Origin: Chlamydiales bacterium | GTDB lineage: Bacteria; Chlamydiota; Chlamydiia; Chlamydiales; JBDQID01 | Assembly: GCA_047611865.1 (NCBI GenBank) | Contig: JBLFWS010000097.1 | Coordinates: forward strand, 1-12,951 | Direction: 5' to 3' | Length of the DNA: 12,951 bases | Shown: positions 5,550-7,020 of the stretch, one piece after another | How positions within the stretch are numbered: the first letter of the stretch is position 1 | Layout of the letters: the number at the start of each line of letters is the position of its first letter | Notes under the pieces: generated by a model | Told to the model about the DNA's origin: nothing | Databases searched by the model: none | The model's input: the letters and a program-made list of their open reading frames with translations, nothing else | Translations under genes and position numbers: made by a program

Positions 5550-5765
5550 TAGCCCTGGGATTAAACCTAGGTCGTGTATTAAAATTACAAATGACCGTTT
5601 TTTTATCTTTTGTGGCATTGGCGAAGCCTTCATGAGGAACGAAGTTCCGCTACAGTAATAGCCTAGTCTGAAGTGAGCCTTTGGCGAACGAAGGGCTAGG
5701 AAATGATTAATTTGTTAATTATAGCACTGAAAGTGCGAGACAAAAACGTCACTAAGTATTTTTTG

Positions 5766-6354
5766 ATAGGGGTAGGGATGGATTTCGCCACCCCTCCCTC
5801 CGAACCGTACGTGCGCTATTAACGCATACGGCTCTTCAGTTAGTAGTTTCCTCATCGGGATCGACACGCTAGCTCTAGAACTCTGGCTTTTTCCATTGTG
5901 AAGAGTCCTAAATTCGCGAAGAATACACCTTTCACTCCGTCTCCAGAGCTGTCAACATATCGTCTATCCAGATTGATGGTTCGACCCATTCCCAGCGACA
6001 TCTTAGGTTGCTCGTTTGCCTTATGTTGTCTGTATATCCGGTTTGTTTCTCTATCTCTTGTCTAGACATATTGTCACTCCGAGATTCCATTCATGCCATC
6101 TCCAACCACCCAATAACATGCACTCATCGATGATAGTTGCTTATCGTGAGTACTGAGTTTCAGGCTTCGTCGTCCGACAGAGGGACTCGCCATGTTATTG
6201 AACCGAAACGAGTTCGTTATCCTACGGCCTGAATATCCGCTTCCAGTTGCTCTCCACCCCACCTCACGGTGACGCAGTTACTTTCAGCTGCAAGATTGCA
6301 ACATTTATTGAAGAGGACTCTAACCTCTCTTATCGTATACCATCACAAGCGCAC
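5766..6354 (-). mobile_element. Miniaturised group II intron (589 nt) without an intact RT gene
   Basis: 5' end GTGCG at 6354; domain I motifs (GAAAGTAACTGCGTCACCGTGAGGTGGGGTGGAGAGCAAC, CCGTAGGATAACGAACTCG); domain V GAGCCGTATGCGTTAATAGCGCACGTACGGTTC (5834-5802, AGC triad); domain VI GGGGTGGCGAAATCCATCCCTACCCCT; 3' end AT at 5766. Removing it restores the host palindrome. Confidence 0.92.
5852..6069 (-). pseudogene. Remnant of group II intron reverse transcriptase/maturase (N- and C-termini fused, RT core deleted, frameshifted)
   Basis: ATG 6069 with GGAG upstream gives MSRQ...RWEWVEPSIWIDDMLTALE; after a 1-nt shift it reads GVKG|VFFANLGLFTMEKARVLELACRSR*. These match the W.WVEPS.WT..ML.ALE.GVKG start and (F/Y)FA..GLF end that I recall from a family of bacterial intron RTs. 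Confidence 0.8.
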
Positions 6355-6562
6355 TGTCGCACTTTCAGTGCTTATAGTTACGTGTGGGTTTATTCCTAGC
6401 CCTGCGGTCGCCAAAGGCTCACTGCGGACTAGGCTATTGGTGTGGCGGAACTTCGTTCCCCATGAAAGCTTTACCTACGCCACAAAACAGCCAAGTGAGG
6501 GCGCACCATTAACGGCTTGGATCGAGTATAAAATCAGATCTCCCCTAATTTTAATACACGAC

Positions 6563-7020
6563 CTAGACAATCAGTCTGAGAGTCTGCGGCATCACCTCTA
6601 TAGTCATAGGTGTGGACCCACAATTTTCCCCATCGATATTGATACGTTCTGTTTGAAAAGTCTCAATTTTCAATGTCTTAAATCTGTGATACTGGACGAA
6701 ATCTTTGTGTACGTGCCTTGCACCTTTCTTCAAGGCATCAAAGGCTTTTAAAATTTAGCTTCCCGATTTATGCTCAAACCATAGAAGATCTAAAACACCA
6801 TCATTCATCTGTGCATAGGGAGCTGTTCTAAGGTCTGATCCGCCATGCTGATTATTTTGCACCAAAACCATCGAGAAATCCTGTGGCGCCCTTTTTTCTC
6901 CATCAATGGTTAAGGTGACACTATGATTTTTACTTTTGATGATGTTCCAGAGGATCGCTATATCGTATATTTTTCTTCCAAAGCAACGCAACTTCTCGGC
7001 AGTGACATTTGATTCAAGGA
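6563..7020 (-). pseudogene. Diacylglycerol/lipid kinase family (YegS/DagK/BmrU-like) pseudogene, C-terminal half only
   Basis: ESNVTAEKLRCFGRKIYDIA...VQNNQHGGSDLRTAPYAQMNDGVLDLL, in-frame TAA at 6755-6757, then the same frame continues ILKAFD...INIDGENCGSTPMTIEVMPQTLRLIV* (TAG 6563-6565). No N-terminal NPxSG/GGDG domain found upstream. Confidence 0.85.

Follow-up and report, generated by a model that had tools for sequence, protein, structure and literature searches.

Hairpin targeting among group II introns is given as the hallmark of a single class, class C (IIC), in the review by Zimmerly & Semper (2015, PMC4424553), where the other lineages are described as homing by sequence. Passages in three papers (PMC1702495, PMC10190682, PMC4424553) already put terminators, 'other inverted repeats' and attC sites upstream of IIC introns, and the IIC cryo-EM study describes recognition of the shape of a DNA stem-loop together with short pairings of the exon-binding sites EBS1 and EBS3, and lagging-strand priming (PMC10190682). 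For group II introns in chlamydiae or with IS605 hairpins, literature searches yielded nothing closer than the fragments H.ha.F1 and H.ha.F2 of Halorhodospira halochloris, for which the pertinent section of the original paper proposes that hairpins may aid target recognition (PMC7923331). The locus described here is a palindromic miniature inverted-repeat transposable element (MITE) interrupted by a group II intron. It lies in the window, a 12,951-bp stretch of DNA that is the complete contig C97 of a chlamydial assembly (G000; 3.59 Mb, 272 contigs, G+C 41.5%). The window quite likely holds a fossil copy of a small endonuclease-less (En-less), IIB-like intron of the IIE/IIF type, from a family that inserts into hairpin modules. 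Below, G103, G276, G124 and G191 denote other chlamydial genomes, and C followed by a number denotes a contig.

The intron (Table 1) is recognised through its domains V and VI, which match the Rfam model RF00029 at 5836..5766 of the minus strand (49.9 bits, gathering score 40); across the whole assembly this model gives eight matches at E <= 0.001, seven of them above the threshold. The junctions on the minus strand read ...GCACT-GAA-AGTGC-GACA/GTGCG...CCCCTAT/CAAAAA (a slash marks the splice junction here and below), and the ends of the intron fit those of group II, with GTGCG at 6354 (5' GUGYG) and ...CTAT at 5766 (3' AY). The branch point is predicted to be the unpaired A at about 5773, 7 nt upstream of the 3' splice site. 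No open reading frame (ORF) of 60 aa or more with a Pfam match was found inside the intron or the MITE. The remnant of a reverse transcriptase (RT)/maturase ORF directly upstream of domain V has the translation VFFANLGLFTMEKARVLELACRSR, followed by a stop, and aligns by eye with the RT C-termini of G103 (intact), G276 and Cupriavidus. Both the 589-nt form in the window and a 751-nt form on contig C9 retain about 20 N-terminal codons and the last 24 codons with the stop.

Without the intron the MITE measures 411 bp, and with it 1000 bp. The inner arms comprise 95 nt at 86% (5608-5702 and 6393-6487) and 16 nt adjoining the junction (5723-5738 and 6357-6372). Removal of the intron rejoins a centre composed of GCGAGACAAAAA, a 13-nt loop and TTTTTGTGTCGC, in which 11 of 12 positions are complementary with one mismatch and the junction reads TTTTTG/TGTCGC. 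An empty paralogue at C16:20350-20758 matches the joined arms at 92.7% over 411 columns and runs unbroken from 5765 to 6355, which fixes both boundaries of the intron. Contigs from three of four public metagenome runs also join 5763, one further letter and 6355 at about single-copy depth. An empty allele at the window locus was rejected as the source of this joint, which is one T shorter, as in the C16 paralogue; it probably is that same paralogue and hence gives no independent support. The preliminary description, made from the letters of the window, had proposed a group II intron inside a palindromic MITE, splice boundaries that an empty copy would reveal, and a stem with a 13-nt loop regenerated on removal of the intron. 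The RF00029 match, the 21-bp terminal inverted repeats (TIRs), the complementarity of the rejoined centre and the C16 paralogue, an empty MITE with the predicted junction, bear these points out. Its palindrome of about 290 bp holds for the inner palindrome and falls short of the whole intron-less element.

The 37-nt end of the MITE occurs 73 times in the assembly. These ends form 17 inward-facing pairs spanning 115-409 bp, in addition to the 1000-bp pair of the window, and fall into size classes of 115-169 bp and 370-409 bp; only the pair in the window is enlarged by an intron. With its TIRs, its many copies and no transposase, the element is a real MITE. A TA dinucleotide, at the left TIR just inside the coordinates given in Table 1, stands at both ends of two copies, which is compatible with a TA duplication, but the ends themselves are palindromic. 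No autonomous partner was found, as the MITE-end pairs of the assembly include no TIR pair of the size of an insertion sequence (IS).

A BLAST search of the assembly with the intron returned 18 pieces with 95.6-98.4% identity, spread over 15 contigs and for the most part cut by contig ends, and the family numbers about a dozen copies in this genome. All ten assembled 5' exons end in GCGACA (five), GCGGCA (four) or CCGACA (one), and all nine assembled 3' exons start with C. Under a fixed rule, a hairpin (stem of 5 bp, loop of 3-5 nt) ends 4-6 nt before the splice site at nine of the ten 5' junctions, with stems that differ in sequence (GCACT/AGTGC, GCACC/GGTGC, GCGCC/GGTGC, AGCTG/CAGCT and GGGAC/GTCCC). 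In three repeat families the 5' exon is the reverse complement of the 3' exon, which places the intron at or near the centres of palindromes. The insertions occupy at least five repeat or site types. Within the MITE they are found in either arm, oppositely oriented with respect to its central loop, which is incompatible with one insertion multiplied by MITE copying alone; independent insertions within this genome are thereby shown. Copies that are 96-98% identical have different bases at positions -7 to -12 from one site type to another, which makes a constant second intron-binding site (IBS2) unlikely. The target is a short module common to several repeat families, a 5-bp hairpin and CG(A/G)CA followed by C. 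The preliminary description had taken multi-copy MITE/REP hairpins to be the target; the hairpin-bearing repeats hold, with hairpins at nine of ten 5' junctions where copies in unrelated, hairpin-less targets might have appeared, but what is targeted is the module and not the MITE itself.

The same hairpin rule was applied to control sites. A hairpin is present at 152 of 1402 unoccupied CG[AG]CA/C sites, at 62 of 336 unoccupied GCG[AG]CA/C sites and at 2004 of 20000 random positions, compared with eight of nine occupied GCG[AG]CA sites, the exception being C20:22826. The 274 GCG[AG]CA/C sites without a hairpin are all empty. A minimum-free-energy (MFE) rule passes 10 of 14 5' exons of the wider family and 394 of 3000 random 36-mers (13%), and three of the four exons that fail it still have an adjoining hairpin that the rule mis-scores. 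A strict module pattern occurs 62 times in the assembly, with C as the next base in 35 cases, T in 17, A in 2 and G in 8; seven of the eight modules followed by G are intron junctions, and the remaining one lies on C187.

The modules belong to a composite-repeat superfamily in this genome with the form G(C/T)(A/G)C(C/T) - loop - (A/G)G(T/C)G(C/T) - G(A/G)CA, and the stem changes between module families are compensatory. A link of the modules to a Y1 transposase was considered and rejected, since the five Pfam Y1_Tnp matches on four contigs have no module directly beside the gene; two of the four loci have one module within 3 kb. No TnpB was found when the assembly was searched for a Y1/IS200/605-type link to the modules.

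DNA matches to the intron were found in 15 of the 400 chlamydial genomes scored, G000 counted, and are mostly fragments. One relative is in G103, where a complete intron encodes an intact 441-aa RT/maturase (TIGR04416, 415 bits) that ends at the maturase region and has no endonuclease region; the only NCBIfam curated cut-off that it passes is that of the group II RT/maturase model. The G103 ribozyme comprises about 440 nt upstream of the ORF and about 80 nt downstream of it. The intron, preceded by an 8-bp hairpin, lies 12 nt past the stop codon of a tnpB gene of the IS605 type that carries a frameshift. In G276 the intron also follows a hairpin, and its 3' end overlaps the start of a HEARO RNA match by about 16 nt. 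HEARO is an RNA associated with IS200/605-type HNH genes, so the G276 intron sits at the edge of an element of that type. G124 and G191 carry decayed copies behind hairpins. Outside the chlamydiae, the nearest RTs in the plasmid collection are those of Cupriavidus and Paraburkholderia plasmids at 52-53% identity, the others listed reaching at most 41%, and these introns follow a 5-bp hairpin and TTA. The hairpin stands 2-7 nt upstream in G103, G276, G124, G191 and Cupriavidus/Paraburkholderia, the distances in G276 and G191 having been read by eye.

In three of the chlamydial relatives (loci L034, L035 and L036), which lie in different contexts, GAGAG(G) stands just before GTGCG (GAGAGGTT, GAGAGGCT and GAGAG), and the EBS1 loop of two of these introns finds a better pairing partner in bases that lie 4-5 nt further upstream. 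This shared sequence could reflect a common IS-end target or a shifted splice site.

A candidate for the element that reads the site was located in the consensus fold. In domain I (DI), GGCGA...GAAGCC flanks a hairpin whose loop is 11-12 nt long, and a candidate EBS1 in this loop complements the end of the exon in three lineages: UGUCG(G) with (C)CGACA in the 751-nt form of G000 (5-6 bp, the G variant through G·U), AGCCUC with GAGGCU in G276 (6 bp) and UAAA with UUUA in Burkholderiales (4 bp). The exon of G191 fits the loop at five of six positions, judged by eye. After the EBS1 hairpin comes another, whose loop has 10-14 nt. The assignment of these sites is based on an alignment of six sequences, and the stem carrying EBS1 (Id3) appears to have no internal loop large enough for EBS2.

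A different explanation of the site preference is sequence-directed homing, in which a longer stretch of the repeat would be base-paired through EBS1 and further contacts and the hairpin would be a passenger. This would account for the occurrence of motif and hairpin together as a module; the candidate EBS1-IBS1 pairing of 5-6 bp exceeds the 3-4 bp given for IIC introns in the class definition (PMC1702495), and reviews, in their passages on homing, give this mode for every lineage other than class C (PMC4424553). However, positions -7 to -12 differ among the occupied site types while compensatory changes keep the stem, the 274 hairpin-less sites are empty with C20:22826 as the only one of nine occupied GCG[AG]CA sites to do without a hairpin, relatives with a very different IBS1 still follow hairpins, and Id3 seems to leave no room for EBS2. 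We consider sequence-directed homing rather unlikely.

Several observations nevertheless weigh against a hairpin-reading intron of the IIE/IIF type. Since a single repeat module carries both the hairpin and the CG(A/G)CA motif, the site statistics separate recognition of shape from recognition of a longer sequence only in part. The 35 modules followed by C are empty, which indicates either low activity or further determinants. The copy at C20:22826 has a weak hairpin only and stops after 229 nt, only the C97 and C9 copies are assembled end to end, and some of the filled MITE copies may be copies of each other and not separate insertions. No pairing is seen in G103 and G124 between the EBS1 loop and the bases adjoining the splice site. 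EBS3 was not located, no column of the alignment covarying with the first 3'-exon base, and for the alpha-alpha' pairing the cognate loop gives runs of 3-5 bp, no longer than those of non-cognate loops. The class assignment is drawn from RNA hallmarks in the relevant part of a single paper (PMC3753933) and not from a labelled RT phylogeny. The statistics place the intron in hairpin modules, and from them together with the relatives we infer that the hairpin is read by its shape.

With respect to class, the defining text of Toor et al. (2006, PMC1702495) lists for IIC introns a CGC triad, a domain V whose distal stem is shortened by 2 bp, an IBS1 of 3-4 bp, no EBS2 and a 5'-exon stem-loop, and the corresponding part of Nagy et al. 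(2013, PMC3753933) lists for IIE/IIF introns a 5-nt domain V loop, alpha-prime in the terminal loop of DId3 and a length of 450-700 nt. Placed side by side, domain V has 33 nt and an AGC triad in the family and 30 nt and CGC in a Sinorhizobium meliloti IIC control. The AGC triad had been noted in the preliminary description as a departure from IIC, and the comparison agrees with it. The domain V loop is 5 nt long (GAAAA or GUAAA) in G103, G276, Cupriavidus and Sulfobacillus, and domain V of G000 folds with a loop of 3 nt, or of 5 nt with a U-A pair open. The G103 ribozyme, counted without its ORF, falls within the 450-700 nt described for IIE/IIF introns, and its RT is En-less as theirs are; as described for IIC introns, a 5'-exon stem-loop directly precedes a short IBS1. 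The family has a conserved AGG(A/U)U(A/G)(A/G)CGAAC block that appears unpaired in the consensus fold; its sequence is not the AGGAA conserved in the 11-nt epsilon-prime bulge of IIC introns.

The RTs and the domain I models were also compared. Among solved RTs, that of G103 matches the GsI-IIC RT best, with 229 bits, where the class C RT of S. meliloti scores 385 and Rh.js.I1, assigned to group g1 (PMC3552965), scores 172; the ratio of the scores to IIC and IIB solved RTs is 1.3 for G103, the same as for Rh.js.I1. The identity of the closest solved RT was therefore rejected as evidence for class C on the strength of these two controls. In a tree of 13 RT sequences, G103, G276, Cupriavidus and Paraburkholderia form a clade (support 100/99) that is sister to Sulfobacillus and S. 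meliloti IIC (85/90), a placement made unsure by the long S. meliloti branch (2.04). In the Sulfobacillus intron, too, domain V has the AGC triad and its loop measures 5 nt, and a hairpin lies on the 5' side. D1D4-3 is the only Rfam model of domains I-IV that matches, with 21.6 bits in the window (below the threshold) and 41.8 and 34.4 bits in Burkholderiales (above the threshold of 32). It was rejected as a marker of class D, since the strongly matched S. meliloti locus is an IIC intron behind a terminator-like hairpin and not RmInt1. This locus (L051; pSymA, NZ_CP026526.1 975401-978915) is a canonical IIC intron with an 11-bp hairpin and a T run upstream, which D1D4-3 scores at 105.9 bits and whose CGC-type domain V is missed by RF00029 at E <= 0.001. 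In the small sample here, D1D4-3 behaves as a model of IIC-type domain I.

That the family is simply a canonical class C intron, with nothing unusual in its class, is very improbable. The 5'-exon stem-loop, the short IBS1, the En-less relatives and the multiple copies would all suit it, as would the sole match to D1D4-3, a model that gives the true S. meliloti IIC intron its high score, and the sister position in the RT tree. Against these stand the 33-nt AGC domain V in place of what the same class definition (PMC1702495) treats as a defining IIC feature, an RT that scores 229 bits and not 385 and whose IIB ratio equals that of a g1 RT, and the long branch on which the tree placement depends. 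These comparisons support a non-IIC intron family, which is provisionally filed as En-less, IIB-like and of the E/F type. The preliminary description had looked to the parent RT for a classification; the RTs of the relatives are not C-like, and the G000 assembly holds no parent RT to classify.

One ancient insertion into the MITE followed by passive multiplication, without repeated hairpin targeting, hardly survives: the arms of intron-bearing MITE-A copies are 90-96% alike and the intact TIRs could have carried the intron as cargo, but the site types number at least five, opposite arms and orientations of MITE-A are occupied and the same elements also occur without the intron (C16 and window 7062-7289), and for the intron family as a whole this course is already contradicted.

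The fossil state of the window copy is indicated by its missing core. It is without a 161-nt segment that the 751-nt C9 form carries after intron position ~266 and that is also present on C83 and C271. The deletion was mapped by alignment and consensus fold with C9, three chlamydial relatives and two plasmid relatives, and the lost segment corresponds to the 3' strand of the DI basal helices, domain II (DII), the conserved J2/3 block and domain III (DIII). The deletion junction occurs once in the genome, and in three metagenomes contigs at about 12-15 times the depth of the flanks leave the window at 6085/6090 and enter the 161-nt segment. The 751-nt form is the majority and the deletion is private to the window, the depth being taken with caution because summed metagenome depth is not copy number. 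A complete six-domain ribozyme (DI-DVI) is absent from the window copy, and its missing parts are present in the C9 form and in five relatives. With the DI 3' strand, DII, J2/3 and DIII lost, the window copy is a relic of a group II member and is probably inert, predicted neither to splice nor to move. Two partial copies are further decay products of the family: C127:1-533 starts at intron position 265 behind unrelated sequence and resembles a 5' truncation, and C20:22826-23054 stops after intron position 229.

No cognate RT and no full-length parent, which the preliminary description had proposed to look for, were found in the G000 assembly. As the assembly is 95.5% complete, the parent intron may lie in the unassembled part of the genome. 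The RT genes of G000 on C18 and C28 were rejected as parents; they belong to another lineage, contain in-frame stops and share 34-36% identity with the G103 RT. They mark a second group II lineage at C18:25175-28795 and C28:1-2638, of which the C18 member matches Rfam D1D4-6 at 123.5 bits. Both introns have a diverged domain V 3' of the ORF that RF00029 misses. The D1D4-6 model matches a common Klebsiella plasmid intron at 185 bits.

A mechanism can be proposed for the hairpin-module family by analogy with class C introns. The intron RNA would form a particle with an RT supplied in trans by a full-length copy that is now lost or unassembled, and this particle would reverse-splice into transiently single-stranded DNA. 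The target would be read through 4-6 bases by EBS1-IBS1 and one base by EBS3-IBS3, and the adjoining DNA hairpin would act as a shape cue, as it does for class C introns. Replication would supply the primer, which is proposed because the RTs of the relatives are without an endonuclease domain. The target repeats are intergenic, so such insertions would cost the host nothing. The window copy has meanwhile lost the 161 nt of its catalytic core and nearly the whole ORF.

The MITE and the intron lie in a gene-poor part of the window. A set of glycogen-metabolism genes (GH57, a glycosyltransferase and a debranching enzyme) ends at 5018, a tRNA-Met gene is located at 5220-5292, and there is no intact gene from 5293 to about 8094. 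No RNA data set was listed as holding this stretch. A 78-aa ORF at 6755-6991 on the minus strand matches only the C-terminal YegS_C domain (E 1.5e-08) and probably is a gene fragment stranded among the repeats. Further downstream, the second palindromic element of Table 1 has on its plus strand the site ...GCACC-GGTCA-GGTGC-GGCA/C (7146-7169/7170), whose 24 nt are identical to an occupied site on C61, and the two make a filled/empty pair for a second palindromic family. A third palindrome, at 7501-7776, has 95-nt arms that are 77% complementary.

Table 1. Positions of the features discussed, in the window unless another locus is named.
Feature	Position	Strand	Basis or remark
MITE left arm	5567..5765		repeat search, paralogue alignment
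MITE right arm	6355..6566		repeat search, paralogue alignment
Left terminal inverted repeat	5567..5587		21/21 complementary
Right terminal inverted repeat	6546..6566		21/21 complementary
ORF-less group II intron, deletion derivative, 589 nt	6354->5766	minus	RF00029 match, sequence, empty paralogue
Domain V, 33 nt, AGC triad, basal and distal helices	5802..5834	minus	cmscan alignment; fold -16.0 kcal/mol
Domain VI	5766..5800	minus	cmscan alignment
RT/maturase ORF remnant, last 24 codons and stop, just before domain V	5852..5926	minus	
Private 161-nt deletion point	6085..6090	minus	alignment, genome junction search, metagenome contigs
5'-exon hairpin GCACT-GAA-AGTGC	6359..6371	minus	DNA fold -4.0 kcal/mol
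Candidate IBS1 CGACA (last base of the hairpin and GACA)	6359-6355	minus	
First 3'-exon base, C, candidate IBS3	5765	minus	C in all 9 assembled 3' exons
Second palindromic element, empty, other family	7062-7289		65-nt arms, 91%
L034 (G103:C1:482000-487000), tnpB	48-1234		HTH_OrfB_IS605, OrfB_IS605, TNB
L034, intron	1246-3096		at the end hairpin of the element
L035 (G276:C238), HEARO RNA	105-395	minus	85.5 bits, threshold 83

Taken together, the insertion sites and the relatives suggest that hairpin targeting is not confined to class IIC. Although this family is characterised by an IIB or E/F-type domain V and a non-C RT, members from at least five genomes are inserted a few bases beyond hairpins that are unrelated in sequence. 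It is possible, if still tentative, that structured-DNA targeting is shared by an IIB-like (E/F-type) lineage that is En-less and occurs on Burkholderiales plasmids and in environmental chlamydiae. Its preferred landing pads would be hairpins of other mobile DNA that is palindromic or active as single strands, namely MITE cores, the ends of IS605 tnpB elements and IscB/HEARO ends. If this is true, hairpin recognition would be either ancestral to En-less introns or convergent, and the hairpins of MITEs and ISs would form a self-renewing safe harbour for retroelements. The filled and empty sites provide a natural series for testing the recognition of DNA shape outside class C. A retroelement that lives on MITE and IS200/605-type hairpins is also relevant to the way in which selfish elements reach harmless sites when the genome is compact.

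Known systems share individual features with this family. RmInt1 and RmInt2 likewise use a mobile element, an IS, as the landing site for another; they differ in that the accounts consulted describe class D introns whose EBS1, EBS2 and EBS3 pair with IS sequence, with no hairpin module. The introns of Thermosynechococcus elongatus reportedly retarget through diverged EBS sequences and not through a hairpin. There too ORF-less derivatives multiply within one genome, presumably with RT in trans, but the passages concerned deal with cyanobacterial IIB introns whose cognate RT is present (PMC2882425). IIE/IIF introns (Cl.be.I2, Pe.th.I2 and Ge.ur.I1) differ in being described with an apparent EBS2-IBS2 and as sequence-homing, and the available descriptions of those introns mention no 5'-exon hairpin. 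Another case is that of H.ha.F1 and H.ha.F2, class E fragments from a cluster of attC sites lacking integron-integrases (CALIN), which the relevant section presents as IIB-type, En-less and located right after attC-like hairpins, adjacent to an IS200/605 element (PMC7923331). They are, in that account, two 5'-truncated fragments at integron attC sites, without a multi-copy series of junctions and with targets other than MITEs. Class C introns (B.h.I1, GsI-IIC, the E. rectale intron and IIC-attC) resemble the family in their landing pattern as it is described for them: insertion a few bases past a DNA stem-loop, a short EBS1-IBS1 and one EBS3-IBS3 pair with no evident EBS2, an En-less RT and many copies in intergenic sites. 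The family differs from them in its domain V (AGC, 33 nt and, in the relatives that carry an RT, a loop of 5 nt), in the similarity of its relatives' RTs to solved IIC RTs, which is at a non-C level, and in a candidate IBS1 of 5-6 nt in G000 with no spacer between stem and IBS1. What makes the family interesting is that a lineage outside class C shows the IIC style of landing on the hairpins of other mobile DNA.

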